This document shows positions 1-22,410 of a DNA stretch of 64,000 nucleotides, one piece after another. The notes under the pieces were generated by a model that worked only from the letters and a program-made list of their open reading frames with translations, was not told where the DNA came from and did no database searches. How positions within the stretch are numbered: the first letter of the stretch is position 1; every line of letters starts with the position of its first letter. The DNA is from Schmidtea polychroa (taxonomy: Eukaryota). The stretch covers positions 8,308,001 to 8,372,000 of the forward strand of contig CM097887.1 of the NCBI GenBank assembly GCA_044892525.1, written 5' to 3'. The translations under genes were made by a program, and so were the position numbers.

Positions 1-49
1 AGCAATAGCGAAAGCGGATAACGGAGATAACAACAATCAAGAACCGAAA

Positions 50-6000: not shown

Positions 6001-9000
6001 TCAGATAGTCAGAGTAATACTAACACAAATGTTAGCTTGTTTCGATATATACAAGCGGGAAAAGAAAGTTAACTGGAAAATGATAGTAGGTTTCTTACCA
6101 TTTTTAGCTAAGACCATGGTATTACATGGCCACTCAAAAGACATTCATCGGATAAAGCGATTGATTAAAATATTAACAAAGATTAAAGGAACCGACGAAG
6201 AAGTAGGCAGACGATTCCGGAAAGCAATGTACGATGAAGCAACAAGACGACAATTGAAAAAGAATAAGCCAAAATTCTTGGACCGATTTAGAAGCCAATC
6301 ATCTAACAGCGATAGTGACGACGATGATAACGGGAACGATAAATGTCTTTATCCAAACAGAAACCCAAACGAAAAACCAATGGAAACGGCACCATATTGG
6401 GAAAAGGAAAAGACAAACACCTGGATCGCCAATGGAAGCTATATACCACCGGATATCGTGGGACCACAAGCAGCTTTGACCATGACACAAAATATGTATC
6501 CGCAATTACCGAGTCAACCCGGTATGCATTATATGCCAACACGACGTACCAAAAGTGTAGATCAAGCAGATGACGTAAGAACAATAGCAGCGATGAGTTT
6601 ACCTGGAGGTCCAGCAGTAACAGTTATGATTCAAATCAATGGTAAAGAAACCAATGCTATGATAGACACCGGAGCTAATGTATCAGCGATAGCGATTAAT
6701 CAAATTCCCAGTAAACACTGGAAAGATATCGAATCAACAACAATTCACATCATAGCATGTAGTAAAGAAACAGTGGACGTGGTCGGAAGATGGTGGACTA
6801 CATTGAGATACCAGGACAACGAAATTGAAACGTATTTGGCAGTAATACCAAAACTTAGCGTACCATGCATAATCGGAACGGATTTGATGCCAGAATTGTT
6901 AAAAGAAGTCGTAATTGACTTAACAACCATGTGTTTAAAAGACAAAACCGGTAGAATATGCAAAATGAATGCAGTCATCAGATGTCCAGAAAAAATAATA
7001 GTACCAGCAAAATCGCAGATGATTTGTCAGATAAAAGTGGATACGGGTATGGAAGGAGAAGTTATCTTTGAACCAAGCAAGTCATTTGAAAAGCGACGAG
7101 AATTACCACTCGCAAGAGAAATAATCACAATAAACCAAGAAGGAGTGATACCGCTCAACATCACGAATTTCGAAGAGGAAGACAAAATCATTTATGAGAA
7201 CGAAAAATTGGGAAGATTGACCCCAATGATGGACATAGAATTACCGAAAGTGACCAACGAGATGATCAAAGATGATGAATTATGGACAATAGATAGTATG
7301 TTGTTGACGAATGATGAAAAGAAAAAATTACACCGATTGTTGGTAGAATATAAAGATATATTCGCCATCTCAGATTTAGACTTGGGTACATGTGATGTTA
7401 CCTTACATGCAATACCACTCATAGACGAAACCCCAATTGCATTGAGACCATACAAGCTAGCAGAAATGCAGAAAGAAATAGCCGAAACAGAAGTACAAAA
7501 GATGCTAGACGCAAAAGTAATCGAACCAAGTTGCTCACCCTGGCAATTCCCAGTGGTCATGGTAAAAAAGAAAGATGGCACCCAACGATTCTGTATCGAT
7601 TATCGGAAGTTAAACGCAGTGACCAAGAGAGATACCTATCCATTGCCGGACATCAATGAGATGTTATTGATGTTGCAAGGGGCAGCATATTTTACTTCTT
7701 TAGATCTAAAAAGTGGATACTGGCAGATTAAAGTCAAAGATGAGGACAAAGAGAAAACAGCTTTCACGTTGGGACGAGATCTATATCAATTCAGGAAAAT
7801 GCCATTTGGACTGACCAACGCACCAGCATCATTTCAACGGTGTATGAACTTTGTCACCCATGGAATCAAACAATGTATGGTATATATTGATGATTTACTA
7901 ATCTATTCAGCGACATTTGAACAACATCTGGAAGATATCCGAAACGTATTTATTAGATTAAGACAGTGGAAACTCAAACTCAAACCATCAAAATGCGATT
8001 GGGCAAAGGAAAAAGTCACGTTTTTAGGACACATAGTGTCAGCTAAAGGAAAGGAGCCAGATCCAAGAAACATTGAGAAAATAAAAACATGTCCAGCACC
8101 GAAAACTGTCACCCAAGTTCAGGAATTTCTAGGATTATGCGGATACTATCGCAAATTTATCAAAAATTATGCAGGAATTGCAAAACCAATCCAGGAATTA
8201 GTAAAGAAGGATATTTCGTTCATTTGGGAAAAAGAACAACAACAGGCGTTCGAAACGCTGAGAGATAAACTAATCGAAGCACCTATCCTCGTACACCCAG
8301 ATTTTAAGAAGCCATTTCTATTGGCAACGGATGCAAGCGGGTACGCGGCAGGCGCGATTCTGGGACAATTAGACGATGAGGGAAAAGAGAGAGTAATCGG
8401 GTATTACAGTCGAACATTCAAAAAGCACGAAAAGAACTATTCGGTAACAGAACGAGAAGCATTGGCTATAATACAAGCTATCAAACACTTCCGATATTTA
8501 CTATGGGGACATGAGATATGCATAACCACAGATCATCAACCATTAGTGTGGTTAGGGCAACATAAAGAAGCGTCCAGTAGACTGATGCGATGGGCCATGC
8601 AATTGCAAGAATACTCCCCATTTATAAAATTCAAAGCGGGAAGAGCAAATGCCAACGCCGATTGTATGTCAAGATTTATTTTCCCAGATTTGGTGGATTC
8701 AGAAATGCAACGCATATGCTTAATAGTAGCGGAAGATTTGGATTTCTGTCAATTACGAAAGGACCAACAAGAGGACGCGGAATTAAAACAAATTATCGAT
8801 TATGTAAAAACCGGAAAGACAGAGGTATATGCGAAAGACCAAAAATTAAAAGAACATATGGATAAACACCGACACCGATATATTATAGAGAAAGATTGGT
8901 TGCTGATAATGGATGGGGAAAAACGATTAATGTGTATACCGGAAAACCGACGAAAAGAGTTACTAACGCAATATCACGATGGGAGATTGGGAGGACATAT

Positions 9001-10162
9001 GTCATCGAAAAAGACGTTAGCAAGAATGAAACAGAAATATTTTTGGCCTACGTTAACTGAAGATGTAACTGAATGGGTAAAAAATTGTCTAACTTGTGCA
9101 ACCAGGAAGAATACTGGATCGAAATGGAAAGCACCTTTAACGCCAATGCCAGTACCAATAGAACCAATGACAATGATATCCATGGACGTAGTTGGTCCAC
9201 TACCAGAGTCAGATAAAGGAAACGTTTACATTCTAGTGATCACAGACTTTCTTACGAAATTCCCAGAAGCATTCGCGATGCCAGACCAAAAAGCTAAAAC
9301 AATCGCAAAAATTTTGGTAGAAGAGATATGTTGCCGATATGGAACACCAAAACAAATCTTAACCGATCAGGGAACTAATTTTATGAGTGAGATAATGAGC
9401 GAAGTAACAAACTACTTCAAAATAGCAAAACTAAGAACATCTCCATACCACCCTCAAACCAATGGGATGACGGAAAGATTTAATGGAACACTTATACAAA
9501 TGTTATCAAACTACGTTGACCGTCACCAACGAGATTGGGACGAATATATAAACCTATGTCTTATGGCGTACAGAATGTCGATTCACGCATCAACGAAAAT
9601 GAGCCCATTCAAATTAATGTACGGAAGAGAATGTAATATGCCAATGGACCTAGAATACCAACCACCGATATCGCAGTATATGGAGATCGATGATTATGTT
9701 ACGAAATTCAAGGAAAGAATGCAAGAAATTTGGGAAACTGCGGGATTAAATATCAAGTTCTACCAGGAAAGTTATAAAGATTTACACGATCGAAAGAAAA
9801 ACGTGAAGCAACATACGTTCCAAACAGGTGATTGGGTAATGATAGAAACCCCGGAATTGATTCCAGGAACCACAAAAAAGTTACAACGCAACGGAAAAGG
9901 ACCATATGAGATCTTATTCGTAGGCGAAACTAATGTAAGAGTGAAATTGGTAAATAACCCCTTTACCAGACCAATATACGTAAACGTGGCACGATGCAAA
10001 TCAATTCCAAAAACAGCCACTAGTCAACCAGAAGGCCGTACATTAACCACACGTTCGCAAACCTACCGAATGAACATGATGCAACAACTCGCAGAACCGA
10101 TCACTGGACGATTAGGTATCCAACCATCAGAAGCGGAAAAGATTGTAAGAGGTAAAAATTAA
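50..10162 (+). CDS. Gag-(UBL x3)-(Bcl-2-like)-Env-Pol polyprotein, >3370 aa, 5'-truncated by the window (frame open back to position 2)
   Basis: CCHC knuckles 188-340; protease AMIDTGA (D at 6665); RT YIDD (7883-7894); RNase H TDAS/TDHQPL/NADCMSR (~8315-8670); integrase H-x6-H...CLTC, DVVGP, TDQG, NGMTERFN, GPY motif (~8975-9990). No stop codon in 10.1 kb. Confidence 0.97.
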   Translation: MNQFIPGAHQIFKPPQGRSNGNNGNRNNPNNENNFNNRRNMNDNKQCRTCGKPGHWDRDCYRNSNCNRCGRRGHTENVCQLRGCFNCGQPGHISRDCRERGQQQRPPQRNNNYIANPQRQSNPNEGKQMNVMQEISQMKQMMQQMMRPRQESAPQQTQNIRMMRSTENLNNYEVHQHVQEWQRLQAEEERIKQERNQQRQEQPLRINMMKLVKDMKSQYCYNYGKSPRVVPMTEPEKVKEITTEMKTENSTTISKGNQRIQKIFWKKIKDKIEKEHNKAKTETEDENNKSKEQTSQLNHQMLQESESEETTIFERKKLKRVPRMRNLQINMMKRTKDEASSDEEEDYVSSLGGEILQPNEISEPPKGEIKEEESGNEITSESEDEDIEIKLRKAREEAIKQVAEILPVVVRNQEFIDVIPFRRFVQKVMKLERNEKDLIPNEEKSIIKNYMEKMKQADTTRYVIKIGTSRGLERMWIKNTVTDELFDWIREHLGSSRKKEYLYQYQGEQIKPDMHLVDALIWPGETQILKLHKEKQPANLYDWAKDAKAEYDFNIKLKLEQIKQCTLRRNLDKLIKQIQEQVEDNWDLLITRRAPAMYELMSRLRDTEMLRMSDWRTINLIHKYGRLKETQPQRLEITIWLPNEEKRRIKMSNQSTVDDLVSKINQEITEKVRSESSDGMVDDVVMMYDKIILRAEDDTSLSEMGMWDNHQIIRIVPMDEFRTRDVTYQKEIRDRMKTLYQKSTEIIEIHQQWLKEKELQGKITKLNTRSCRRTPWERVWNAENKEWEIRKGIFVETDIGETESESEEEEEEPPEYEEEARGQTSDDESETDVTSESENEARHIHAMRKKEREYADMDGEEATEAREREEKERYKQLGDILAMGAKNQKRQVVALANIILKTSENIHNLRGMAKAIEEYRQYNEWYPEQLEQIIRKWRNQEWAQDTQERYHIRIKYPDKSIEELEVHPTTKIRELKKKLAYETPFHLQLFGKSLDDNADVGITPMRLEETNVLTMAETLGKPLKRKSKIIKPTKGSLSTPSPNKAPSKSNETEEVEEIILEDSDDEPGERSPLLVRWPTGAEMWTNNQPSTSYQQPTKLNIKEIIDNTTETETDEQFQKQREPTKVTPESQTDKIIDEWNEWLRNNDSSLPRTDNERNPNYENTREAGTMMEKRAKGRPKKQGEKSEFKTKEQLKQEQGQVRLEKLDKIVWDLKEAQPTIERGEKWIRELLKDMLIITNPQLRRLWQRKVASTEARQLWHTISGIIPKLIKEKTKTTKTDWDETKRVIEQLTTNANDDEHHLVVITYLMYNLMGLAARKIPNKQFANHVEMTVSIIENTIEPHIIRAGGWKRLIQAPRKNEQERSMQVRLKKLLNELEWELPMKDPASRKASINSLMMTMMIWMLCTSGATGFTIYDCDNMIMRDKYSLRDIEECRQASPNKLDIVRTKVTYHVYQESDFIRTQARECVVSKKVLAYYCGQYSYSTLILPGLDKEIVSIQREDCKELFRTGALKMHNGVTIHGQTGMIKTESVYVSGKVKSSDGSCNGGTYTIRGEVISGVVVIESYTVELKEYEAQFDANNYQMKTNPACKATENVCRTGVSTIIYEANTQKCRLQLLKSALFNEVKGEIYENENDEDGNDRVRMRNGKPMPPSPREKRLSTQKTPTALITDDPDLGMRFIKEKETTKCDSIVYKTNYAGIYMSRQIIDRAVGKIATEDVKLYLYANNKMDFLFHRGQTTLQKVYYDLIQNDCSLNKEILKTKLAIAITHPDNTMPSLPLPDGHFGRMVGEVMYTYQCTKTYARMPEKSILPEKRCANELEIRYKGQNRFVQPVTRIMNPVGFYPNLFNCSNAYGPLYERPDGKWMMLPGKTISEEPKKFGLIELATELDFKPIDVSNGGMYSPEDLETARLNVLFPARRESILSNMVTITGGTNYQSGPNYELLLSPDHFQQATSNMMKAMWGRFLVFGQMMAGILGIILIIQIVRVILTQMLACFDIYKREKKVNWKMIVGFLPFLAKTMVLHGHSKDIHRIKRLIKILTKIKGTDEEVGRRFRKAMYDEATRRQLKKNKPKFLDRFRSQSSNSDSDDDDNGNDKCLYPNRNPNEKPMETAPYWEKEKTNTWIANGSYIPPDIVGPQAALTMTQNMYPQLPSQPGMHYMPTRRTKSVDQADDVRTIAAMSLPGGPAVTVMIQINGKETNAMIDTGANVSAIAINQIPSKHWKDIESTTIHIIACSKETVDVVGRWWTTLRYQDNEIETYLAVIPKLSVPCIIGTDLMPELLKEVVIDLTTMCLKDKTGRICKMNAVIRCPEKIIVPAKSQMICQIKVDTGMEGEVIFEPSKSFEKRRELPLAREIITINQEGVIPLNITNFEEEDKIIYENEKLGRLTPMMDIELPKVTNEMIKDDELWTIDSMLLTNDEKKKLHRLLVEYKDIFAISDLDLGTCDVTLHAIPLIDETPIALRPYKLAEMQKEIAETEVQKMLDAKVIEPSCSPWQFPVVMVKKKDGTQRFCIDYRKLNAVTKRDTYPLPDINEMLLMLQGAAYFTSLDLKSGYWQIKVKDEDKEKTAFTLGRDLYQFRKMPFGLTNAPASFQRCMNFVTHGIKQCMVYIDDLLIYSATFEQHLEDIRNVFIRLRQWKLKLKPSKCDWAKEKVTFLGHIVSAKGKEPDPRNIEKIKTCPAPKTVTQVQEFLGLCGYYRKFIKNYAGIAKPIQELVKKDISFIWEKEQQQAFETLRDKLIEAPILVHPDFKKPFLLATDASGYAAGAILGQLDDEGKERVIGYYSRTFKKHEKNYSVTEREALAIIQAIKHFRYLLWGHEICITTDHQPLVWLGQHKEASSRLMRWAMQLQEYSPFIKFKAGRANANADCMSRFIFPDLVDSEMQRICLIVAEDLDFCQLRKDQQEDAELKQIIDYVKTGKTEVYAKDQKLKEHMDKHRHRYIIEKDWLLIMDGEKRLMCIPENRRKELLTQYHDGRLGGHMSSKKTLARMKQKYFWPTLTEDVTEWVKNCLTCATRKNTGSKWKAPLTPMPVPIEPMTMISMDVVGPLPESDKGNVYILVITDFLTKFPEAFAMPDQKAKTIAKILVEEICCRYGTPKQILTDQGTNFMSEIMSEVTNYFKIAKLRTSPYHPQTNGMTERFNGTLIQMLSNYVDRHQRDWDEYINLCLMAYRMSIHASTKMSPFKLMYGRECNMPMDLEYQPPISQYMEIDDYVTKFKERMQEIWETAGLNIKFYQESYKDLHDRKKNVKQHTFQTGDWVMIETPELIPGTTKKLQRNGKGPYEILFVGETNVRVKLVNNPFTRPIYVNVARCKSIPKTATSQPEGRTLTTRSQTYRMNMMQQLAEPITGRLGIQPSEAEKIVRGKN
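188..340 (+). other. Three tandem CX2CX4HX4C zinc knuckles (nucleocapsid)
   Basis: CRTCGKPGHWDRDC, CNRCGRRGHTENVC, CFNCGQPGHISRDC. Confidence 0.97.
1430..3091 (+). other. Three ubiquitin-like domains in the polyprotein (~1430-1645, ~1952-2200, ~2897-3091)
   Basis: The third aligns by eye to ubiquitin: LEVHPTTKIRELKKKL...FGKSLDD vs LEVEPSDTIENVKAKI...FAGKQLED. The second has I.LP..KRRIKM...STVDDLVSKI...DDTSLSEMGM. The first is SUMO/UBL-like (YQYQGEQIKPD) and weakest. Confidence 0.65.
3770..4108 (+). other. Bcl-2-like domain in the polyprotein
   Basis: BH2-like PHIIRAGGWKRL (GGW at 4091-4099), preceded at the expected spacing by a helix pattern matching the BH1/alpha5-6 region (TKRVIEQLTTN...HHLVVITYLMYNL...HVEMTVSII). 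The NWGR motif is not conserved. Confidence 0.65.
4226..6130 (+). other. Chuvirus/mononega-like class III fusion glycoprotein (Env) with internal signal peptide and C-terminal TM
   Basis: Hydrophobic signal (LMMTMMIWMLCTSGATG) then FTIYDC..YSLRDIEEC, DGSCNGGTY, CDSIVYKTNY, YANNKMDFL...YYDLIQNDC.L.KEIL, GEVMYTYQC, CANEL..F.QP.TRI, GMYSPEDL...FP.RRESIL; TM ~5948-6022. The motif series matches my recollection of chuviral glycoproteins. Confidence 0.85.
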
Positions 10163-10214: not shown

Positions 10215-13200
10215 TTGACGATGATCGAGAACTATGCAAATAGAGAAAGGACACACCCATTATTGCGAGTAGTCAAAAGCCAATGGCCAATATTATTTAC
10301 AATAACAGATCAATACGGAGACACACCATTACACAAACTCATGAAAGTAGGTAACAACGAGCAAATACTAGAAACAATAGAAGCATTTCACGACTGCAAG
10401 CGATCAACAGAACAAACAAACAACCAAGGTTACACACCATTAATGATAGCCGCAAACAGAGGCAAAACCAAAGACATTATAACCGCATTACTCGATACCG
10501 GATCGAAAATAACTACACAAGACCACGAGCGGAAAAACGCTCTACATCATGCCATCGAAGGGAGAAGTACCGAGGCGTTCACGTCATTGATGGAACTACT
10601 ATCATATGAGGACAATCGGGAAGTCGGAAACATGTATGATGGATTGTTAACAGCGATCAAAGAAAAACTGACGACAATTACCGGAATATTAATTACATGG
10701 AGAAGTCCAATTCAAAACGATTATATGATCAACGTAAACGAAGCGTTCACGAGAGGAGAGAACACGCTGATGAGAGAAGCTATGAAAGGACATCATTTAT
10801 TCGAAATCCCGAATCAATTACTAGAACGAGGGATAAAATTCACAAATCACAAAGACGAACAGTTAACAAAAAAGCGAATCGACACATTCGAAAAATCACT
10901 ATTCCAATTTACTAACCAAGTACGAAATAAATATTGGGAAACGGTAAGTGTGTTATATATGATGGACACAATGAATAACATCCGCGAGAATTACCTGGAT
11001 ATTATCCAAATACTTACAGCAGAGGAACGAATCAATAATCCAAACGGAAAGAAAACGAAAATAAGGTATGAGAAATCCAGGGAATCAAAGTCAACAACGA
11101 ACCAAACGGTCATAAACAACGTCATCGAAACCAAATCAATGAGTATAGATCAGGAGGCAATAATACGCAAAGCGAAAGAGGTATTCTTTGAGGAAATGCT
11201 AGAGTTGTCAGACGAAATAATATTGTCAAAAATAATAAAAGCTGTACATACATACGCAAGAGATCAAACCACGGGTTTAGATATCGGGAAAATCAAAACC
11301 TTCTTGCCTCGAGCATTTACGATGGTAACGAAGGATTCCAGAACACCCCTACAACAAGCAATACTAGCAGCGAAAGAAAATAGAGCAATAACGATCGTGA
11401 GAATCCTTGGAGATATGGGCGAGGAAACCAACACGAAAAATGAACAAGGCGAAACCGCCATGATGTATGCAGCTATAACAAAAATACACCCAAAAACACT
11501 CCACATCCTACATCAATCAGGATCGAAACTAGACGAAAGGTCCAATGAAGGAAATTCCACCTTGGACTGGGCAACCATACAGCCAAACCTAGAAATGATC
11601 AGATTTATTTGCAAAAATGCGACAAAAGAAGAAGTTGAAAATATGTGCAAAAACACATCTCAGTTTCAATGGAATACGGTACGGAAAAATCTAGAAGCAA
11701 TGAAATTATTATTAACCTGGAGAGTACCACAAAATAATAAATATGCGATAAATGTAAACGAATTCTACGAAAACGGAGAAAATGCGATGGTAAAGAATAC
11801 CCTAACGAAGGGGGGGACGCCTAAAATCATTTTAGTAGTATTAAATAGAGAAGACCTAAAATTCACGCAAAATCAGAACGAGCAACAACGAATTGGGAAA
11901 CATCGTCGTATGCAATTGAGAGAGTTAGTCAAAGAATGGAATAGAAAGAGGCATGCTGCAACGGGCAGGAAGGAGTTTGAATTCGAAGCAAAATTAGCAA
12001 GAAACAGAGTGCTAACAGCATATCGCAGATTATTGAACGATATAAATGTCGAGGACGACATTTTAAACGACAGCGGGGGAGATAAACACGATGACAATAA
12101 CGGAAAAGGCCGAAAGGAGGATAAAGAGAAAAGAGAACCGGAGGAGGGTAAACCGGAAAACAAGGATTCGGATACGAAAAGAGAGGGAAACAGCCCGGGA
12201 ACTAAGACCAAAGAGGAGGAAAAATCGAATAATGGAAAACAGAGGGTATGCCTACCTTTCACTAACAAAGAAATAGAGACAAATATGATATTAATGATAA
12301 TTATGCTTACCATGATAGAGTTAGTAACAGCTCATGGAGGGACGAGGACGATAAAAGAAACCAAAGAAGCGGAGAATCAAGATAGCAAAGAGGACGAACT
12401 AAAACAAGAAAAGAAAAAGCAAGCACAAGAGCAGCAGTGGGATTTAAAGGAAGAATGGGACTTAAAGGAAAGGTGCATACTAGGAAGATGCATGTCTAGA
12501 GCGTATCAGAAACTAGTACTGATAAATGAGGACACAGAACCAATAACAGAAGTAAGAATACAAGAAGCATACCGAAACCGAGACGGGAAAAGAATAACGA
12601 ACGTTAAAGGAAAAGAGGTACACCTAGGAAAAGGTGGCGAAGTAGTAATAACGCAGCTCCAACCAAGAAAAGAGCACAAAGTCTGTATTTCAAGATTAGG
12701 ACCGGGTGAGAGATGCCATCAATATGTGACGCAGCAGCAGCCTCCGAAGGAATATACGGTTTGTATCTGGAGAAACGAATCAAAAAGAGAATGCCGACGA
12801 TACCCGGGGAAAAGAGGAAAGAAAAGGAAAAACCACGACGAAAAGGACGAAGGAGGAAAGCACAAGAAAACTGGTGAGGAAGCTCAGGACAACTATGTTT
12901 CGGAGGAAGAGATGGAAAAAATACAAAAGATGGCAAAGGAGGGTATGAACGAGGAAATAGCAAGAATACGGGAAATGATGAAAGGAAATGGCAAAAGAGG
13001 AAACGAGAAAAGTACAGAAGCGATATCAACATTAACAAACAAGGAAAAACCAGAGAGTATAAGCGTGAAGCAGATGATGTGGATCAGTGGGATAATAATA
13101 ACAGGGGCATTCCTAATCATAACGGGGGGAACAATAAAAATAATTAAGGATAAACGACATCGCGGAGAACTAGAGATGACTCGAATCAGAAATTTCCAAC

Positions 13201-13286
13201 ATCGAGTGAAACGACCAAGTGATATCAAACAAGAACAGTGGGTGGAGGCCTGGAACGCTCAGCGCCCTCCAAACTCACGTATATAG
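10215..13286 (+). CDS. Ankyrin-repeat protein (two ~340-aa-spaced ANK modules) fused to an internal signal peptide, FN3-like ectodomain and TM; first ATG 10221, frame open from 10149
   Basis: ANK motifs GDTPLH, GYTPLMIAA, KNALHHAI, RTPLQQAI, GETAMMYAA, GNSTLDWA; duplicated TWRxP..Y.INVNE motif (10695, 11715); hydrophobic segments 12285-12332 and ~13074-13145. Confidence 0.85.
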   Translation: MTMIENYANRERTHPLLRVVKSQWPILFTITDQYGDTPLHKLMKVGNNEQILETIEAFHDCKRSTEQTNNQGYTPLMIAANRGKTKDIITALLDTGSKITTQDHERKNALHHAIEGRSTEAFTSLMELLSYEDNREVGNMYDGLLTAIKEKLTTITGILITWRSPIQNDYMINVNEAFTRGENTLMREAMKGHHLFEIPNQLLERGIKFTNHKDEQLTKKRIDTFEKSLFQFTNQVRNKYWETVSVLYMMDTMNNIRENYLDIIQILTAEERINNPNGKKTKIRYEKSRESKSTTNQTVINNVIETKSMSIDQEAIIRKAKEVFFEEMLELSDEIILSKIIKAVHTYARDQTTGLDIGKIKTFLPRAFTMVTKDSRTPLQQAILAAKENRAITIVRILGDMGEETNTKNEQGETAMMYAAITKIHPKTLHILHQSGSKLDERSNEGNSTLDWATIQPNLEMIRFICKNATKEEVENMCKNTSQFQWNTVRKNLEAMKLLLTWRVPQNNKYAINVNEFYENGENAMVKNTLTKGGTPKIILVVLNREDLKFTQNQNEQQRIGKHRRMQLRELVKEWNRKRHAATGRKEFEFEAKLARNRVLTAYRRLLNDINVEDDILNDSGGDKHDDNNGKGRKEDKEKREPEEGKPENKDSDTKREGNSPGTKTKEEEKSNNGKQRVCLPFTNKEIETNMILMIIMLTMIELVTAHGGTRTIKETKEAENQDSKEDELKQEKKKQAQEQQWDLKEEWDLKERCILGRCMSRAYQKLVLINEDTEPITEVRIQEAYRNRDGKRITNVKGKEVHLGKGGEVVITQLQPRKEHKVCISRLGPGERCHQYVTQQQPPKEYTVCIWRNESKRECRRYPGKRGKKRKNHDEKDEGGKHKKTGEEAQDNYVSEEEMEKIQKMAKEGMNEEIARIREMMKGNGKRGNEKSTEAISTLTNKEKPESISVKQMMWISGIIITGAFLIITGGTIKIIKDKRHRGELEMTRIRNFQHRVKRPSDIKQEQWVEAWNAQRPPNSRI

Positions 13287-13446
13287 AAAGGAATATGACT
13301 GTATATAATTGTAAAAAGTAAGTATATCTTATGTATATAACAGTACTATATCTTTATATAAGCGCGGTATCAATATTATACGATAACGGGAATCATAAAA
13401 TAAAATTAAATTTACATAAGAGTTGAAAAGTGTATATAAATTAGGA

Positions 13447-13806
13447 ATGGATCAAGGAAATAACGAAATGAACCACAATACAGTAACTGAAGAATTATGG
13501 AAGCAACAATGTGCCGTATTAGCACAATTAGTGTCCAATTTGCAAGAACAAGGACTGACGATGCACAGAAACCTGATCGAGAGTATGAACAGAGGATTTA
13601 GTTATTTGAAGATAATTGAAGACCAGAGGTTAAAAATCGAACAAATGCAAAGAGAGATAGAGAGGATAACCCAATATAGCCGTCGACAGGAAATTGAAAT
13701 AGACCGAATGAGGGAGGAAGCAGAACAGATAGAAATAGAAGACTGGTCGGAATGGCTAATGAATAGAGAGGAGAGCGGACACGAAGCCGACTCTTCCGAA
13801 CCCTAA
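13447..13806 (+). CDS. Small coiled-coil protein of unknown function (accessory ORF)
   Basis: Intact ORF with heptad-like segments; ATG at 13447 preceded by TTAG|GA; same composition as the element. Confidence 0.6.
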   Translation: MDQGNNEMNHNTVTEELWKQQCAVLAQLVSNLQEQGLTMHRNLIESMNRGFSYLKIIEDQRLKIEQMQREIERITQYSRRQEIEIDRMREEAEQIEIEDWSEWLMNREESGHEADSSEP

Positions 13807-13891
13807 ACCAAACCTAGCTTAAAATGTAAATAAGTGTAAATAAAATATCGAACCTGTATCGATAAGAACTACTTGTACATATAATTATAGA

Positions 13892-15280
13892 ATGGATAAA
13901 CGACAAAGAGAAGAGTTCAGAGAGATTGTCGAGCAAGTCCGAAAATCTACAACGATCAGAATACACAAACATGTTATGTGCGGAATATGTGAAAAGTTGT
14001 TAAAGGAACCTCACCAAACGCAATGTGGATGCCGAGCATGTAAAGAATGTATCAGTGAAGCAATAAAGAATAGACCACAGAGGTGCCCGGTGTGCAAAGA
14101 GACACTAATATCGAGTTTAGAAGACACTAACGAGGATAAAGCCGCAGTGAAAGACATGTTAAACACCAACCTGGGATGCAAAAATGCCCCATGCGAATGG
14201 AAAGGAGTAATATGGAAGGTAGTACAACATATGGGAGAATGTATGTACAGAATTGGCCAGTGTGAAAGGTGCCATAAAACCATTCGAGCAAGCGAAGGAA
14301 AAGAGCATCAAAGGCAGTGTGAAGAGAGATTAGAAAGATGTGAACACTGTGGAGAAATAGATACGTGGATAAATCTCACCCTCAAACATCACAATGTCCC
14401 AGAGGAGAGAGTATGTGCAGAGTTCAGTGGGGAATGCCCAAACGGATGTAACCAAGGGGAAATAATGAAGGTGGCACAGCATCTAAGAGAATGCGAAAAG
14501 AAAAGAATGACATGCGTACTAGGTAGATGGGGTTGTCAGAAATTACTACACCGAGGTGAGTTACCACATCATTTAGTAGAAAATGCTTCAACTCACGCAG
14601 AAATGTGGTCGACTGCGTTACGAGAAAGCGAAGAGAAAGTAAAACAAATGGAGATAGAGATAACATCGTTGAAAGTGTTAGTCAAAGAACTACTAGAAGA
14701 AAGGGAAGCGTTCGAAGAAGCCCGAGCAAACATAAAGATGCAAATAAACCGAATAGAAATCAGTAATAATCAGGCCAAGGAGCTACATCAGAAAATACGG
14801 GAAATAAATCTAAATGAGATAACCCCAACAGCACCCTACATATGGAAAATAACGGGAGTAAAAGAAAGAATACGAAAAGCAAAAACCGGAGAAGAGACAA
14901 GAATAACAAGTCCTGCATTCCATTCTTGGAAAAATGGGTACAAAATGAAAATGAAGATATATCCCAACGGGGACGGAACCGGATTAGATACGCACTTTTC
15001 GATTTTCTTTCTGTTATGTAAAGGAGAATACGACGAAATATTAGAATGGCCGTTCCAGGCAAAAATCGATATTACTCTGATGAACAACCAAAGTATACAT
15101 GAGCAAAGCTTCAAAACAACGGGGAATCAAATAGCTTACCAGAGGCCCCTCAACGAAGAAGGATCAGCAACAGGAGCACCTACGTTCATCTCACAACAAA
15201 GAGTAGAAGATATGGCGAGAAATGATACCATATATATCAAGATGACCGTGAGGAAAGAGGAGAAGGGTAGAACGGAGTAA
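13892..15280 (+). CDS. Intronless TRAF-like protein (RING, TRAF zinc fingers, coiled coil, MATH)
   Basis: RING CGICEKLLKEP.QT.CGCRAC..C...CPVC; zinc fingers C.N..C.WKG....VQH..EC; MATH YIWKI...SPAF..W.NGYKM.MKIYPNGDG.GL.THFS.FF.L.KGEYD.IL.WPF. Confidence 0.95.
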   Translation: MDKRQREEFREIVEQVRKSTTIRIHKHVMCGICEKLLKEPHQTQCGCRACKECISEAIKNRPQRCPVCKETLISSLEDTNEDKAAVKDMLNTNLGCKNAPCEWKGVIWKVVQHMGECMYRIGQCERCHKTIRASEGKEHQRQCEERLERCEHCGEIDTWINLTLKHHNVPEERVCAEFSGECPNGCNQGEIMKVAQHLRECEKKRMTCVLGRWGCQKLLHRGELPHHLVENASTHAEMWSTALRESEEKVKQMEIEITSLKVLVKELLEEREAFEEARANIKMQINRIEISNNQAKELHQKIREINLNEITPTAPYIWKITGVKERIRKAKTGEETRITSPAFHSWKNGYKMKMKIYPNGDGTGLDTHFSIFFLLCKGEYDEILEWPFQAKIDITLMNNQSIHEQSFKTTGNQIAYQRPLNEEGSATGAPTFISQQRVEDMARNDTIYIKMTVRKEEKGRTE

Positions 15281-15473
15281 CCAATCGAATAATGTTGTAT
15301 ATAATAATCTGTATATATCGGTGTATATAACCAATAAAATATTATATAATAATAGTATGAAAACCCTAAATACGAAAACCCAAAAATGATGCGAAAATTC
15401 CCCAAGAAACAGTAAATAATGAATAAATTCCTTTTTCATAATAAAAAGATTAATCGATGTCTATGATTTAGAG

Positions 15474-16529
15474 ATGACACAAGAGAAAATAACCGAAACT
15501 GCGATAGCCCCAACCAATGTCAACAAGACACAAATTCCCCGAGAACATAACAAAAAATGGAACAAAGTAATGTTCCAACTAACTAATCTCACCCGAAACC
15601 ACATCGAAGAAACTAGAGAAGATGAGAATAGTCAATACCAATGGTTAATACACAACTTAAGAGCGGAAGCAGAAGCATGCAAAAGAGCATCAAAATGGGC
15701 GTCACTAGAAAATACCCGCCAAGAAGCACACAGCCACTACTTAAAGCAGCTAGTGCAGGAAGCGAGAAAGAGACTTACCGATGAGAACACCAAGCGCGAA
15801 GCGGAAAAACAAATAGAAGACAGGAAAATGATGCACTTAGTGGCAGAAGCGAGAAAATGGAAAAGACAAAACAGAGAAATGAAAAAAGAGATGAAAGAAT
15901 TGCCCATGAGACTCGGATATGAGAGCGAACAGGGCAAATGGGAGGAGAATTTAATAATAAAGGAAGAATTGAAAAGGTTGAGAAAGGTCGCCGCCCGAAG
16001 CCAAACCTGGCAAACAAAGGCTATGGAGTTTGAGCGACATTTGGCAATGAAGTGCGACATAAGAGAGCACGAGAATGCCGCAATGGAAGAGATGATAACC
16101 CAACAAGCGGGACGGGTTGTGGAATTAGTAAATCAGGTAGAAGAGATGAAAAGAGACCTTAATGGATTACAAGGATCGCTGGAACAAAGAAACATGGTCC
16201 TAGCGGGAAAAAACAAAAAATTAGAAAACGAAAGGAAAATGTACACCGAAAATATTAAAAACTTAGAAATAGAAATTGAAAAATGGAAGGGCGACGAGAA
16301 AGTCAAGGCCCTAGACAAACAGATAGAGGCGAAAGATGAAGAGACAAGGTATCTCACCTATCTGCTCGACGAGGAATTGAATATCACTCGAGCTCTAAGA
16401 GACGAAATTAATGAATTGAGAGCTCAAATCCCCCAATATTACCTACCATACGACCCTATTGCGATACAGTTACATTCCGCGGTCGATAGTGATGAAGGTT
16501 ATGTAGGCCAGGAGGAAACCTTCGTATGA
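15474..16529 (+). CDS. Long coiled-coil protein of unknown function (accessory ORF)
   Basis: 351-aa intact ORF, E/K/R-rich heptads. Confidence 0.7.
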   Translation: MTQEKITETAIAPTNVNKTQIPREHNKKWNKVMFQLTNLTRNHIEETREDENSQYQWLIHNLRAEAEACKRASKWASLENTRQEAHSHYLKQLVQEARKRLTDENTKREAEKQIEDRKMMHLVAEARKWKRQNREMKKEMKELPMRLGYESEQGKWEENLIIKEELKRLRKVAARSQTWQTKAMEFERHLAMKCDIREHENAAMEEMITQQAGRVVELVNQVEEMKRDLNGLQGSLEQRNMVLAGKNKKLENERKMYTENIKNLEIEIEKWKGDEKVKALDKQIEAKDEETRYLTYLLDEELNITRALRDEINELRAQIPQYYLPYDPIAIQLHSAVDSDEGYVGQEETFV

Positions 16530-16699
16530 GGGTGGATGAAAAGATGAAAAACTAAAAACCGGGACGTATATCCCAAACAAAAAAAATTAAAGTACAGTAA
16601 AAGTATTTGAGGGACTGTAACCCTGTGTAAATAAAAACGATATAAATGTATAAGTATAAGTCGCACTGTAGCGCATGATTAATTGTAAATATTATAGAT

Positions 16700-17398
16700 A
16701 TGAAAATCGAGGAAATGATAGAAATTATGAGCGACGTAGAAGAGGGAGAGATTGAGGCAGAAACAACAGAAACACAAACGCTAAAGGCCGAGTTACGGGA
16801 AGAGAAATACGAAAACGGGAGATTAATAAACAAATACCTGGAGGACCGGAAAATGATAAAGGTGTTAAAGAAAGAGTGCGAAGCGTTGGGGGAAATAAAA
16901 AGAGAAACGGAAGAGGAAAATGAATGGCTACACGAACAAAGGAAGCGAGGGAAAAACTGGGAAAAGATAGCGGGAGAACTATGGAAAGAGAGGGCAAGCT
17001 TCAAAGCAAAGGAGGTAATCCAAGACTACTGGAAAACTGAGGCGAAGGAGCGCCAAACAGCTATAAATAAATTAAAACGACAACTAGAAGAAAACCAACG
17101 GGAAAGTAAAGAAATGAGGAAGTGGGTCCGCAAATATAGAGAAATAGAAAGAAAACATCAACAACAAAATTACCTGCAAGAAAACGAACAAGATCTCCTA
17201 CAAATCGAGCTAAAAAGAAACCTTGAAAAGAAAAGGGAAGAAATTAGACGCTTGGAAAAAGAAATTAGACATCTAAAGAGAGAAGCCCGTGAAAAAGACC
17301 GACAATTGGAAATGCTGCCCGAGTTAAGACACAGGGTAATTAAAGCAGAGTCCACCTTGATGAGAATCGGCGAAAATAATCCAAATCAGAACCATTAA
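16700..17398 (+). CDS. Coiled-coil protein of unknown function (accessory ORF)
   Basis: 232-aa intact ORF, E/K/R-rich heptads. Confidence 0.7.
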   Translation: MKIEEMIEIMSDVEEGEIEAETTETQTLKAELREEKYENGRLINKYLEDRKMIKVLKKECEALGEIKRETEEENEWLHEQRKRGKNWEKIAGELWKERASFKAKEVIQDYWKTEAKERQTAINKLKRQLEENQRESKEMRKWVRKYREIERKHQQQNYLQENEQDLLQIELKRNLEKKREEIRRLEKEIRHLKREAREKDRQLEMLPELRHRVIKAESTLMRIGENNPNQNH

Positions 17399-17438
17399 AT
17401 TAAGGGTCATTAAAACCAATTGTAAATAAACATAATGA

Positions 17439-18107
17439 ATGTATAATAGTATCATGCGAGGCGAGATGATGATAACAATGATGGTATTGATGATTCTGAT
17501 GGAAAGCAAACAAATAGACGCCCAACCGAAAATCGTACGAGATTACCGAAATCAAAATCAAGAACCTAAACAAGAATCCAGTCAATGCACATACCCGATG
17601 ACCGTAAAAACCCATATCATCCAAACCATTCAATCAACCCGATCACACATCAACAACATCCAAACAATGTGTAAAAAGAATCCCATTTGTAAAATGATAA
17701 ACAAACAAATCCTCGAACAAATCCAACAATTCGACCAGTTGGAACAACAAATGCAACAAGAGAATTTTGGAAATCTGGTAGAAAAGCCAAAAATACCTCC
17801 CGAAATCAATGACACCCATTATCTCATATATGTGGTGATCGCAGAAACCCTCCTCCTATGTCTACCAATATTCATGAAAATTTACGAAGTTCGAAATAGA
17901 TGTAGAGTCTCGACATCAATAAGAGTAACCTCGAACCAAAATCCTCAAGAAGTGCCCCTGACAAATCTTAACCCATCCCCATTCCGACCTCGAACCCCGA
18001 GTAATCAACCAATCCAGCCGAAATCTAATAGTCAGACCTATCTCAACATCAATACCCAAACCAACCAACAGCCGCCAGCAGAAGCATCAATGGTTAACAG
18101 TTCATAA
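17439..18107 (+). CDS. Putative small type I membrane protein (accessory ORF)
   Basis: Signal-like MMITMMVLMILMES..IDA, Gln-rich ectodomain with 3 Cys, TM YLIYVVIAETLLLCLPIFM, Pro/Asn-rich tail; AATAAA follows at ~18214. Confidence 0.65.
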   Translation: MYNSIMRGEMMITMMVLMILMESKQIDAQPKIVRDYRNQNQEPKQESSQCTYPMTVKTHIIQTIQSTRSHINNIQTMCKKNPICKMINKQILEQIQQFDQLEQQMQQENFGNLVEKPKIPPEINDTHYLIYVVIAETLLLCLPIFMKIYEVRNRCRVSTSIRVTSNQNPQEVPLTNLNPSPFRPRTPSNQPIQPKSNSQTYLNINTQTNQQPPAEASMVNSS

Positions 18108-18669
18108 ACTCTAACTCAAACATTTGTGTTATTATATGTGGAAACTTTTATTGTATGTACAAACTATCACCTTAAGTGATACTTGCTTGATCTTGCTTTG
18201 ACCTTGATCTTACAATAAAAATTTTATCATTGTTGTATAATTTTCGTGTTCGTGTTATATTTTTTTTTGAATGAATGAATTAAGTTAATTATGCAATTGC
18301 GGGACGCAATTTTGATGGGTCCCCGAGTGATTTGTTGGGCTGAGTCGAAAATTTAATCGTTGAAAAATAAGAAAGTAGGGAAGTAGAACATTAAGAAAAA
18401 TAAAAATAAAATAAATAAAATCAGAAATAAAATAGAATAAGGTATAAGGAAAATAATAATTAAGACATAAGAATTAAAACAAAAAATAAAATTAAGAAAA
18501 GATTAAAATAGAACAAGTTGACAAATAAATAAAGAGGAATTCAAGAAATAATAAGGAAATTAAGGAAATAAATAGAAAAACATATTAAAAATAAAGAAAA
18601 TAAGGAGAAAACAACCTAAAAACAAGAAAATTATATTAAATTAATAGAAATAAGCGGTACTCAACTCTG

Positions 18670-18703
18670 ATTGGTCCGCACAAATAAGAATTTGATATAT
18701 ATA
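18670..18703 (+). promoter_or_regulatory. LTR core promoter: inverted CCAAT box (ATTGG 18670) and TATA (TATATATA 18696-18703)
   Basis: Both motifs are conserved in the solo LTR (25166, 25192); a conserved AG|GTAAGA donor lies ~50 nt after the TATA. Confidence 0.55.
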
Positions 18704-19220
18704 CAACTACCAAAAACATTAAATTTACTGTTAACCCCGAGCATTTCATAGGTAAGAAAAAATGTTTACTGTTTCTACTGTTAACCCCGAGCATTTCATA
18801 GACATCTACAACTCACGGAGACTTATTTCAAGGATCAGCAATACAAGTAGAGCAACAGTTAATTCGAAAAACTTCACAGCAATTCGAACTCAGTCACAGC
18901 AATCGACATTCGACGAATTATCATCAGACTAATTTGGAACGACTAACGTTAATTTTCCGATTCAGCCTAATTCCATAGTAAGGGATTTTTATTTATGATA
19001 TTGTTTTTCGAAGTTAATAGTAAATATGTATATTTAATGAGTAATTAAACTTTTAAATTTAACCAGACTCTCTTTTCATTTGATCCTGAATAACGATTTT
19101 GATAAAGTAAATAATTTAAATGTTTAAAAGTATTTATTGGTAACAGGTGAACTCTTACATAATTTTTATGGATATTTATTTTGAAGTGATAGTTTTATGA
19201 TTTCTAATATTAACGAGAAA

Positions 19221-19350
19221 CGTGGCGTTGAGATACTCCATGTCATGGTGTGAGGTGCCTTCGGGAGCTCAGCCGGTGGACATGGAGTATTTCAATCACG
19301 CAGCTAGATTGGGCCGAAATGTGAAGGCTTCTTCACGGGTCCAATTGCTG
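19221..19350 (+). ncRNA. Conserved structured RNA element (two adjacent hairpins) in the LTR
   Basis: 17-bp stem 19228-19244/19279-19295 with 5 compensatory pair changes versus the copy at 25740-25807; cUUCGg apical loop; second hairpin 19301-19350. The strand is assumed from LTR orientation and G-U pairs. Confidence 0.75.
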
Positions 19351-21209
19351 AAGGACTTAAAATCTGTCAGAGTACCGAAATATAGACCGAAAGGAAACCT
19401 TATGAAATTTTCGAAAATAGGATATGTGCTTCACAGCGACTGAGGGAGTTCTCCTATTAACTCTGTATTGTCCAGAGTCGTCTTATAAGACATTCATGCC
19501 ACTTCTGTCTATAAATCCGAACTTACCATGTGGGGGAAGATACCATTAAACATCCATCGCTGGTTTTTCTAACATATCGAGAAGTTGAAATTGCATTCGG
19601 TAGATTTTTGAAAAAGTAAATCTAATTTAGGTCATCTCTTTCAGATGCGACATCCAAATCTTAGCATATGATGAGGAATTTACAATAAAGGAAAAGTAAA
19701 ACATAAAACCACAATAATACTGTATTCAATCACATATATTAACAAAATCTGGTAATACCCATTGAATAATTTTCATGCTGTCGCGTCGAAATATCCACTA
19801 CTGAAATATGCTTCATAGAGTCTAGTTGGCTGGTTCGTAGAGATCTTCCATCGTTCAAAAGCATCCAATATTGAGGAAATTACGAGTCGTAGTAAATAAA
19901 TCCAACATCATAAGCTCAGATGGGAATCGACACGCGATGTAACATTTGCAGTTCGCTCAGTACGGTTGATAGTTACAGATAAAATTTCCATCGAATAGGC
20001 ACCCATACATACAGACATACTGCTAACATAACTATGAGTAGCGTCATCCGGTCAGAAATATGCATGAGAAACAGCAGAATCATTCCGAATGCCTCTCACC
20101 GCAGGGAATGCCGCCATGTGTCACCCTCTCTAAGATTCTTAGTGTGTGAGTAGTAATCAGTGGTCCTATTAGATAATGCTGACATGAGATGTGACTTCCA
20201 GATGACTGACTCTTAAATTTCACTACTGATAAAGGTCATTCGTACCACTAAAAAGATAAGCCAAAATAACCAGTAACCGACTACTAAGATAAGAGACTCT
20301 CTAAAGTGCACTCATTAAAGATAATTTTGCTTAAATTAAATATTCTAAATAAAAATCGAAATTGTTGAAGGGGTATTTTAATTAATAACCGAAAATTCAA
20401 ACCAAACTTTATAACTAAACCATAGGAAGTTTCACCTAAGTGTTGTAGAGGTTTATCGTAATTCTGATTAGATGTTACAAATAATAGTAGTAGCCTTTGA
20501 GCCAAATTTAAATTAACTAAAGCATCCACAGGAATTTTTGGGTTATAAAATAGCTAGTAATATTGTACTTAAATTTCTCATATTCCATGTAAACTACGTA
20601 TCGCAATAGAAAACTAAATCCGATAACAAATTATTATGTAATTACAATGTTTTTTTACGATGCCATATTTCTACGACGATATCACCGTATGGTATGGATA
20701 AGGGGTGATCATAAAATAGTGACGTATAGTTTATACGAAATTACGAGTTGTTACTTATTCCGCTACTCGAGGTAAGGGTGCAAGTTTTTACTAGTCGCAT
20801 TTGGTCCAAAAACCTTATTTTGCATTAGAATAACAACAAATAATCAGCGAAATTTAAACGAAGTGTAGTATAGTGTATTTGTAATGAAATAGGTTTATTC
20901 ACTCCGGCATGAACAAATCCGTAAATTGCCTTTATGTGCGATAGATAGAAATCCAACTCGAACGCGATAGACGAAAATTAAAATTTTTACAAATAATTTG
21001 CATTCGTCAGGGAAGCAATCAGGGCGTTGAGGAATAATTTTTGTAAAGGATACGTAAAATATTAGTAATCAAGGGTGAAGGGAAGGATCCTGTTTCATCG
21101 ACTCGTCTTGTTTTCTTCCAGCACTAAGTATCCAATAGCGAATAAACCGTATATCTGATCCGAAATTTTTAGATATAGTCACCATAGTTTTCTTCTTTAG
21201 CCATCCATT

Positions 21210-21962
21210 ATGTTATCAAACAACAAATCAGCTTTACGTCCCTGCTTCTCCTGCTCAGATAAAAATGCAGTGATTAAAGATCTTCAAGCCCAGATCGGTC
21301 GATATAAACGAAAAATCGACGAGCTGGAAGGGACATGGTTTAGTCCCGCTCGGATGAAGGAGATCCAAAAGAAGCTCGATCGTAGCGAGCATTGCCGGGA
21401 CGCGCTAATATCTGAGAGCCGTGCCCAAAGAAGTCTAATCAGAGAACAATCCGAGGCACTGCATAAGGTTTACGTGCAGGCGGCTACAACCCGAAAGATC
21501 GTGCAGATTCCCATCCGAGAGGCCGATGACATCTTTCCGCCTCATCACAACCTTTCCTCGAATCCATCTCCACCGTTCAAGAGACCGTGCCGAGACTGCG
21601 TCGAAACCGAATGGTCCCCCAAGCGTCCAGATGTTGTCATCACGGGTACCAGTAAGCCCCCCACTGCTAGTCCATCTGTATCAGTCACCCTTCTACAAGT
21701 GGCATCTTCAAACAAACCCAAGCGCAAACAACTCTCTCGAGCAGAGCGCAAGAAGAGACAGCGCGAGCGCGCCACTGCAAAGCCAAACATCCCATCAACA
21801 GAGGACTCAACCAACGGTGGTAACTCTCACGTGTCCATCGACCTAACAACGGGACCCTCAGCGCGAATCATATCAGCCGCTGGCGTAAGGTGGGAAGAGA
21901 ACGCTTCCGAGTTTTTCAACCTCGACGAATTATTCGCCGACACTGAATGGGAGAAACAATAA
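21210..21962 (+). CDS. LTR-encoded 250-aa protein (CxxC, coiled coil, Arg/Lys-rich motif, acidic C-terminus)
   Basis: Intact in both LTR copies, ~84% aa identity by manual count with many synonymous changes; polypyrimidine splice acceptor TTTTCTTCTTTAG just upstream; AATAAA at 22086. Confidence 0.85.
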   Translation: MLSNNKSALRPCFSCSDKNAVIKDLQAQIGRYKRKIDELEGTWFSPARMKEIQKKLDRSEHCRDALISESRAQRSLIREQSEALHKVYVQAATTRKIVQIPIREADDIFPPHHNLSSNPSPPFKRPCRDCVETEWSPKRPDVVITGTSKPPTASPSVSVTLLQVASSNKPKRKQLSRAERKKRQRERATAKPNIPSTEDSTNGGNSHVSIDLTTGPSARIISAAGVRWEENASEFFNLDELFADTEWEKQ

Positions 21963-22085
21963 AACCCCAGTGGCGGTCAGGATGAGGAACAAGGATCCGA
22001 TCTATGTTGATTATGATGTTTTCTCTTCTTTCGACAAACATTAGTAAAGTGTACAGCTGAATCCTGGTGTCATAACGTTGAAATT

Positions 22086-22091
22086 AATAAA
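22086..22091 (+). terminator. Polyadenylation signal of the LTR transcription unit
   Basis: AATAAA followed by a TTGTTGTCTT GU-rich element, conserved in the solo LTR (~28351). Confidence 0.6.
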
Positions 22092-22226
22092 TCTTGTTGT
22101 CTTACACGTTTTCGTTCATGAATAATTAGACTTTAATTAAGTGGGTTGAGTAGAGAACCCGCAAGATCTAGTGAGAATTTCCCAATTTGCATTCAGCGAA
22201 TTCCTGATAGGTGGTTGTGTAAGGAA

Positions 22227-22410
22227 ATGGACGTAAGCCCTTCTATCGGCAGTCGTGAATGGGAAGTCGAGGCCTCAGCAAGGAGTAGTTTTAAGGCAGA
22301 AGCTCACCTGCTTGCTGGCGTCTCGCCTGCATAGTGCAGTACCAACGTGAAGTGATTCACGGGCACTATGTTGGAAGAAAGTTATGTGGGGTTTCACTCC
22401 AGGTTGACAA
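22227..22410 (+). ncRNA. Near-invariant structured block near the LTR 3' end (U5-like region)
   Basis: 184 nt with 2 differences versus 28491-28674; helices CATAGTGC/GCACTATG, CGTGAA/TTCACG capped by GNRA (GTGA vs GTAA), CAGCAAG/CTTGCTG. Confidence 0.5.

Follow-up and report, generated by a model that had tools for sequence, protein, structure and literature searches.

In a 64,000-nucleotide stretch of the genome of Schmidtea polychroa (assembly GCA_044892525.1, contig CM097887.1, positions 8,308,001 to 8,372,000 of the forward strand; hereafter the window), five short spacers between the accessory genes of a long terminal repeat (LTR) retroelement together carry the motif TGTAHATA twelve times. 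We conclude that these motifs are a real, conserved RNA-level element. A PUF protein probably binds them under any model of how the RNA is processed, to judge from sequence, and we give about an even chance to the more specific reading that they are Pumilio response elements in the miniature 3' untranslated regions (3'UTRs) of spliced, single-gene accessory mRNAs. The element that contains the spacers is 30,401 nucleotides (nt) long, starts 7.9 kb upstream of the window and, by its sequence, is a Burro-like Gypsy/env LTR retroelement. All coordinates below are those of the window and refer to the plus strand unless a locus is named.

The sequence-only reading that drew attention to these spacers had listed twelve motifs in all three H variants, with every spacer represented and well under one occurrence expected, and each of these statements was borne out. 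The motifs are found on the plus strand in spacers S1 (13287..13446; motifs at 13300, 13332 and 13431), S2 (13807..13891; 13825, 13835 and 13874), S3 (15281..15473; 15296, 15310 and 15322), S4 (16530..16699; 16626 and 16684) and S5 (17399..17453; 17421), at least one in each, as six copies of TGTATATA, five of TGTAAATA and one of TGTACATA. The five spacers total 648 nt (GC 0.23-0.31), in which dinucleotide shuffling yields a mean of 0.54 motifs and a maximum of 4, with 0 of 5,000 shuffles reaching 12. Their minus strand contains no TGTAHATA, a strand bias of 12:0, and the whole element has 13 motifs on its sense strand, 12 of them in these spacers; the 58-nt spacer between the polyprotein and the ankyrin open reading frame (ORF) has none. 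The tetranucleotide TGTA continues as HATA in 12 of 17 cases in the spacers and in 1 of 57 in the ORFs of the element, compared with 9 of 197 and 7 of 183 on the two strands of a 45-kb flank (about 4%). Bare TGTA is itself enriched (17 versus 7.27 expected in the window spacers, 41 versus 17.23 in families A and B, introduced below). The five spacers were picked after the motif had been seen, and therefore other lineages of the element provide the independent tests.

Two further lineages were available besides the family of the window element (family A). Family B, first encountered as a neighbor within locus L054, shares the gene order but in addition has a BIR+RING gene and, within its polyprotein, a MATH domain; its accessory proteins are 23-32% identical to those of the window element, and its accessory region and spacers give no blastn match. 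The family B copy L079 carries 7 motifs in 695 nt of spacers versus 0.63 expected (maximum of 6 in 3,000 shuffles), and the same motif sites are present in the 18 family B copies examined. Lineage A' comprises four of eight loci examined, with accessory identity of 30-80%, and in its copy L127 the spacers, 706 nt in all, contain 9 motifs and the ORFs none. Three more loci (L123, L125 and L126) are rearranged derivatives that end at the same pre-LTR signal, and within the accessory region blastn aligns them with the window element at the S3 motif block alone (82-83% identical), except that one of them also has a matching piece of 42 nt. Two of these derivatives have a 760-amino-acid (aa) gag-like ORF at the 3' end, with TAG 2 nt before its ATG and a TGTA-rich spacer behind it; on its sequence this ORF appears to be flanked by the same arrangement of signals as the accessory genes. 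Locus L129 was dropped for want of a match to the accessory proteins, and a TRAF ORF at L060 has no motif behind it, its membership in such an element not being established. A family with 52% identity, obtained in a search with env, showed no motif cluster behind the polyprotein in the five copies examined. Chance, or TA slippage in AT-rich spacers, can produce such octamers: expansion of a TA/TG microsatellite has created seven at L123:1944-2041, which for that reason were not counted. As an account of the spacer motifs it is refuted by their conservation and position in three lineages, and we regard its probability as negligible.

Conservation across copies, which the sequence-only reading had proposed as a check, is pronounced. 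We compared the window element with 20 family A copies taken from the lower part of 150 scored MATH-domain matches, the element's own family filling the 150 that were scored of 1,554 candidates; their DNA is 78-93% identical to the window. Over the 21 copies, parsimony assigns 0.53 changes per site to the motifs and 1.31 to other spacer sites, with 0.78 at first codon positions, 0.54 at second positions and 2.23 at four-fold sites, so motif sites change as rarely as second codon positions. Eleven of the motifs are kept exactly in 15-20 of the 20 copies (those at 16684 and 17421 in 20 of 20), and the motif at 16626 in 4 of 20. In base-matched resampling, which treats sites as independent and is applied to copies that include decay after insertion, so that the counts are guides rather than exact probabilities, all motif sites together show 51 changes versus 118.5 (0 of 10,000), and the ATA half away from any overlap with AATAAA shows 7 versus 30.0 (1 of 10,000). 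Position 5 is unconstrained (8 changes versus 15.0; 1,084 of 10,000). Family A spacers have T 126, A 73, C 20 and G 0 times at this position, A, C and T are exchanged among orthologous sites, and the motif at 16684 has A, C or T depending on lineage; such exchange is the pattern expected of a PUF site, according to the available part of one source (PMC5758885).

The same observations bear on whether the motifs act in DNA, as TATA boxes or forkhead sites of internal promoters, one for each accessory gene. The sequence TGTATATA contains TATATA, TGTAAATA fits a forkhead consensus, and several TGTA starts are about 10 nt apart. This explanation is very improbable given the 12:0 strand bias, A/C/T swaps at orthologous sites that break both the TATA and the forkhead consensus, three motifs that lie only 16-18 nt from an ATG, and the conserved splice acceptors described below, which would be needless.

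In one copy per lineage, 16 spacers in all, we examined where the motifs are placed relative to gene ends. Thirteen of the 16 have their first motif 13-22 nt behind the stop codon, and no motif is closer than 13 nt; the standard deviation (SD) of this distance is 2.4 nt when the fourth spacer of each lineage is set aside (offsets of 96, 158 and none, the family B one having TGTATAAA at +17). From the first motif to the next AATAAA or ATTAAA the distance is 4-136 nt (n=12, SD 44.8), and the distance to the acceptor AG has an SD of 53.7. With the interval of 13-22 nt fixed from family A, all five motif-bearing spacers of family B fit it, versus 0 of 200,000 random placements. A ribosome shadow of 15 nt behind the stop codon is known for microRNA sites. 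This tie to the stop codon suggests a cytoplasmic site that senses translation and lies just clear of the terminating ribosome, and it argues against a nuclear enhancer bound by CFIm.

Under that enhancer explanation, UGUA (recognized by CFIm25) and AU-rich sequence would offset weak downstream elements in an A-rich element, without any part for Pumilio. It can draw on the enrichment of TGTA itself and the conservation of bare cores, on three motifs that overlap AATAAA (13835 with the signal at 13839, 16626 with 16630 and 17421 with 17425), on two 5' accessory genes that have strong T-rich downstream tracts and no motif, and on a CFIm25 homolog reported in planarians (PMC5068929). However, the position is tied to the stop codon and not to the hexamer, which a nuclear factor should not be able to sense, and constraint is not confined to UGUA, the ATA half being conserved with a free fifth base. 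In addition, the planarian 3P-seq study, in the part of it available, reports neither UGUA ahead of poly(A) signals nor an enriched octamer, and it did not identify CFIm59/68 with confidence (PMC5068929). We consider the enhancer explanation improbable.

What would turn the spacers into 3'UTRs is an architecture of splice acceptors and a donor that the sequence-only reading had overlooked. Every spacer ends in AG 0-4 nt before the next accessory ATG. A YAG within 4 nt of the ATG is present in 10 of 11 spacers of the window and L079, versus 1.28 by shuffling (0 of 3,000); when S1 is scored by its usual state, AAG, the count is 9 of 11 (0 of 200,000 by positional background), and among internal in-frame ATGs a YAG occurs at 28 of 209. 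The AG of S1 (13443-13444) is part of TAG in the window copy and of AAG in 19 of the 20 other copies. Across those copies the YAG of S2 (13888-13890) is TAG 18 and CAG 2 times, that of S3 (15469-15471) is TAG in all 20, that of S4 (16695-16697) TAG 19 times and CAG once, and that of S5 (17447-17449) TAG 13 and CAG 6 times with none in one copy. The position of the last suggests that the final accessory ORF starts at the ATG at 17454 rather than at 17439. TAG and CAG are thus exchanged in S2, S4 and S5, and the base before YAG is variable, as at 3' splice sites; the exchange with CAG also rules out the idea that TAG before ATG is a stop codon for reinitiation. A TAG located 14 nt before the ankyrin ATG was considered as an acceptor of the same class and rejected, being absent in lineage A', where the frame runs through.

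A matching donor is predicted in the LTR, where a candidate promoter and leader (18670..18756) contain ATTGG at 18670, a TATA box at 18696-18703 and the splice donor AG/GTAAG at 18752; the working promoter copy would be the 5' LTR. In 14 of the 18 copies with a CCAAT box in the locus, the donor keeps a constant spacing from that box even though the leader sequence between them diverges; of the other four, two have AG/GTAAAG, one has AG/GTACT and one has no donor (2 of 20 loci were not scorable). Most of the family B LTRs shown have a donor-like GTAAG or GTGAG behind the TATA box. Pyrimidine-rich acceptors precede the LTR-internal ORF, the leader RING ORF and the polyprotein, and downstream of the third of these acceptors the gag ATG is the first ATG; the LTR and RING ORFs are followed by AATAAA with T-rich tracts and by no motif. 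The overall picture is that of a single transcription unit from which alternative acceptors and poly(A) signals would release the individual mRNAs, and the motif is apparently confined to the 3' gene cluster of the element.

Poly(A) signals accompany the motifs in each of the five window spacers. Besides the three overlapped hexamers given above, AATAAA is found at 13399 in S1 and at 15333, 15422 and 15440 in S3, and 9 of the 12 motifs lie before or on a predicted AATAAA while 3 lie behind one. The terminal 3'UTR (18108..18332) has TGTATGTA at 18152, AATAAA at 18214 followed by a GT/T-rich tract, and inverted repeats at 18166-18180 and 18297-18309. In the window copy TGTATGTA is all that this region offers; an exact motif is present in 7 of the 12 other copies shown. 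The first of the two repeats, a small ATCAC/GTGAT pair directly behind the terminal near-motif, is kept in 10 of the 12 other copies shown. In S4 a run of A at 16573-16586 grows to 15-27 A in some copies, and the matching spacer of family B has a similar run.

What we see directly are the motifs with their conservation and position, the sequences that resemble acceptors and donors, and the code of the host Pumilio; from these we infer each RNA-level step that follows, and also whether the regulation is negative or positive. The TATA box of the 5' LTR would initiate transcription, and splicing at the conserved AG/GTAAG donor would join a leader exon of about 30 nt to the YAG located 0-4 nt before the chosen accessory ATG. 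The transcript would then be cleaved at the AATAAA or ATTAAA of the next spacer or of a later one. Finally, host Pumilio would bind UGUAHAUA as near to the stop as the terminating ribosome allows and dampen the mRNA through deadenylation. Contigs from four of twelve sequencing runs (X1, X6 and X7, presumed to be RNA, and X5, of uncertain type), examined over 9800-22600, provide evidence neither way: none of the 15 joints shown (33 more exist) has GT..AG, and none of the 24 loose ends shown (690 more) falls at a predicted acceptor.

The same spacers could instead belong to an operon, in which host spliced leader (SL) trans-splicing at YAG would be coupled to 3'-end formation in each spacer, giving several mRNAs per pre-mRNA with the same Pumilio sites. 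The spacers, 55-219 nt long and with the poly(A) signal upstream of the acceptor, resemble flatworm intercistronic regions, for which the available parts of two studies give a peak near 100 bp (PMC8629364) and a median of 99 bp (PMC12582326); SL trans-splicing, which would use the same acceptors, is likewise reported in planarians in those parts (PMC8629364, PMC12582326). A distance of 17-25 kb, with three pyrimidine-rich acceptors on the way, also separates the accessory acceptors from the LTR donor. On the other hand, a cis donor is conserved in both families. Flatworm spliced leaders end in AUG, as far as the available part of the source describes them (PMC12582326), and in 12 of 16 spacers the gap from AG to ATG is not divisible by three, so that the SL AUG would mostly be out of frame. 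We treat the operon as an unlikely possibility.

Alternatively, the accessory mRNAs may be nested, with the internal poly(A) signals mostly skipped and the strong signal at 18214 shared, and with a stop-proximal protein that would shield the RNA from nonsense-mediated decay or steer termination, its role being protective and not repressive. We hold both this arrangement and the protective role to be decidedly unlikely. Retroviral RNAs do have stop-proximal stability elements, and nested mRNAs would accord with the tight anchoring on stop codons, with a GT/T-rich downstream tract at the terminal signal only, and with the three acceptor-proximal motifs, which they would place inside mature RNA. 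Yet AATAAA or a variant is kept in most spacers, with exchange between AATAAA and ATTAAA in S4 and among AATAAA, AATATA and AATACA in S5, the last two being planarian variants in the available part of the 3P-seq report (PMC5068929), and the polyprotein stop, which has the longest downstream region, has no motif behind it.

Returning to Pumilio, the host genome encodes the expected reader. A Pumilio gene with eight repeats is located at G000:C4:75.19-75.21 Mb, six of the repeats found by pattern and two by eye, and these read S-R-Q, N-Y-Q, C-R-Q, N-H-Q, C-R-Q, N-Y-Q, S-N-E and N-Y-Q, the canonical code known from fly and human. The consensus of Pumilio response elements is UGUAHAUA or UGUANAUA, with the strongest effect in 3'UTRs, in the parts of the literature available (PMC4995099, PMC5758885), and planarian Pumilio is described as present in stem cells and brain in the accessible part of another report (PMC1896013). 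The spacer motifs share with known elements the exact consensus, the free position 5, the sense strand, the location behind stops and the grouping into clusters of two or three, as those sources present them in part (PMC4995099, PMC5758885). They differ in residing in a retroelement at a fixed 13-22 nt from the stop, in being predicted sites, in the overlap of three copies with AATAAA and the abutment of three others on an acceptor, and in the lack of enrichment of a Nanos-type flank. The proposal of joint Pumilio-Nanos control, as the sequence-only reading had framed it, thus survives in its Pumilio half, with a conserved, strand-specific octamer 13-22 nt behind stops, a host protein of canonical code and no UGUA upstream of planarian poly(A) signals in what is accessible of PMC5068929. 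The Nanos half found no support: an A/U-rich triplet directly upstream of UGUA, the Nanos-Pumilio feature in the available part of PMC4995099, precedes 6 of 20 perfect and 10 of 21 imperfect sites versus a background of 0.46. Nor does a restriction to germline or stem cells gain support, planarian Pumilio being described from neurons as well (PMC1896013).

Besides this missing Nanos signature, several observations weigh against our interpretation. Five TGTA cores without HATA are conserved equally well (6 changes versus 26.5; 0 of 10,000), and the 3 nt after the motif are partly conserved (16 versus 35.1; 70 of 10,000), so constraint extends beyond the octamer. The motifs at 13431, 13874 and 16684 lie 32-54 nt downstream of a predicted AATAAA and end 6-9 nt before the splice-acceptor AG. 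Being behind the hexamer, they would fall outside a short 3'UTR, and mature RNA would retain them only if the transcript is a read-through or full-length one, or else they would act on pre-mRNA; the one at 16684 is the only conserved motif of S4. The exclusion of the three fourth spacers from the SDs was made after inspection. One motif-bearing spacer of family B has no AATAAA or ATTAAA after the motif. The spacer behind the BIR+RING (IAP) gene of this family (L079:4794-4875) has TGTATAAA and TGTAGATA, the latter with G at position 5 in 17 of 17 copies, and otherwise near matches only, with no TGTAHATA, unlike the neighboring spacers. On the splicing side, most copies have AAG in place of YAG at the end of S1 in family A and of S6 in family B, and the 3' accessory acceptors show no clear pyrimidine tract. 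The model would also require full-length RNA to escape a large number of internal signals. Finally, the three lineages have a common ancestry and are not independent inventions.

The retroelement has two LTRs of 4,165 nt that are 100% identical, flanked by the target-site duplication TCAA. Its polyprotein of 3,575 aa (50..10162 in the window; its frame begins outside the window, 615 nt before position 50) joins zinc knuckles, an env-like fusion glycoprotein, protease, reverse transcriptase, RNase H and integrase in one frame, with the Pfam order zf-CCHC 82-98, Monjiviricetes_fusion 1663-2002, RVP 2192-2283, RVT_1 2505-2663, RNase H and rve 3038-3135; the env-like fusion domain is thus in frame between gag and the protease-to-integrase part. 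It is followed by the ankyrin-repeat ORF (10221..13286, 1021 aa), which forms a single frame with integrase in two related lineages. The accessory ORFs behind it encode a protein of 119 aa (13447..13806) with no Pfam family and a family B homolog at 32% aa identity, a TRAF-like protein of 462 aa (13892..15280) with RING and MATH domains, a protein of 351 aa (15474..16529) with no Pfam match over the cut-off and a family B homolog at 31%, a protein of 232 aa (16700..17398) with a weak, below-cut-off match to a fibrinogen coiled coil, and a last protein of 222 aa from its first ATG (17439..18107) with a hydrophobic N-terminus. An 801-nt probe was matched at 99-100% by all 40 copies scored, of 379 candidate copies.

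The 3' LTR (18333..22497) begins with TG, ends with CA and is identical to the 5' LTR 26.2 kb upstream, outside the window. It contains an ORF of 250 aa (21210-21962, feature 21190..22091) with a pyrimidine-rich acceptor ending at 21200, AATAAA at 22086 and no motif. Use of the TATA box together with the AATAAA at 22086 would give an R region (18725-22105) of about 3.4 kb with an intron and the 250-aa gene inside it, which is unusual for an LTR. The leader between the 5' LTR and gag has a RING ORF of 161 aa (C3HC4_3; L032:6604-7089, 3.4 kb upstream of the window) with a pyrimidine-rich acceptor 2 nt before its ATG and 41% identity over 39 aa to the RING of the family B IAP gene, as well as seven tandem units of about 74 nt each (L032, window positions -2332..-1821). 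The inverted repeat at 18297-18309, just before the 3' LTR, is common to all three lineages; the shared pre-LTR pattern has 1,152 genomic matches and 0 in the control, and the repeat possibly serves as a plus-strand priming signal instead of a plain polypurine tract. A strong sense-strand skew of A over T (0.23-0.53) runs along the internal region (1-18100) and is absent in the flank. Further along the window, a solo LTR of a related subfamily (24825-28761), 81-85% identical to that of the element and with CCAA on both sides, retains CCAAT, TATA, the donor and an ORF of 249 aa. Beside it, an ORF with C1 and RhoGAP matches (30482-31465) is probably an exon of a host gene.

Neither Burro elements nor Pumilio elements are new in themselves. 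The likeness to Burro/GYPSM1, as the available section on giant planarian elements describes these (PMC6431247), includes a length of about 30 kb with LTRs, gag, env, protease, reverse transcriptase, RNase H and integrase in one frame, an env that matches mononegavirus-type fusion proteins, accessory TRAF/MATH, ankyrin and RING domains, and hundreds of copies. The BIR+RING gene and the MATH domain inside the polyprotein liken family B to Burro1 as described there (PMC6431247). The window element differs in having a 3,575-aa polyprotein and ankyrin as a separate ORF, and BIR was not found in its scanned ORFs, unlike in Burro1, so that it does not classify as Burro1 proper. That section is silent on spacer motifs and on the expression of accessory ORFs (PMC6431247). 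Among titles and the openings of abstracts, we found no report of Pumilio elements or of an acceptor and poly(A) grammar in Burro or other LTR elements; two primary papers, that on Burro1 (Lee et al. 2026) and the genome paper of 2018, lie outside that survey and may report on accessory transcripts, in which case the splicing part would be less novel.

The proposed arrangement also has analogs. The adenovirus major late unit and the foamy viruses use one promoter, a common leader donor and alternative acceptors before each ORF, and adenovirus additionally has a poly(A) signal after each gene block. In the present case a Gypsy element is predicted to apply such a scheme to as many as eight accessory ORFs, almost all of them flanked by an acceptor and a poly(A) signal. 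Flatworm SL operons are similar in having same-strand genes about 100 nt apart with a poly(A) signal and then an acceptor, in the available parts of PMC8629364 and PMC12582326, and differ in that the element has a cis donor conserved in its LTR.

Burro elements are record-size Gypsy elements present in a great many copies, and the IAP gene of one such element is reported to confer protection on stem cells in planarians (cited in the available part of PMC13465017). The exact coordinates given here for the donor, acceptors, poly(A) signals and Pumilio sites are a resource for asking by what means one LTR promoter serves six to eight downstream ORFs, and what restrains these ORFs besides PIWI-interacting RNAs. 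We tentatively suggest, as a possibility that we hold in some doubt, that Burro elements have a modular expression cassette consisting of a stop codon, about 17 nt, Pumilio sites, a poly(A) signal, a splice acceptor and an ATG, by which captured genes are plugged into one unit and ubiquitin and apoptosis genes come under Pumilio. If such a cassette exists, each gene would be tunable on its own, as with the IAP gene of the Burro1-like family, whose sites are all degenerate, and the retroelement would have adopted host Pumilio control as a self-limiting or cell-type switch. This would directly link a translational regulator of host stem cells to the accessory program of a transposon.

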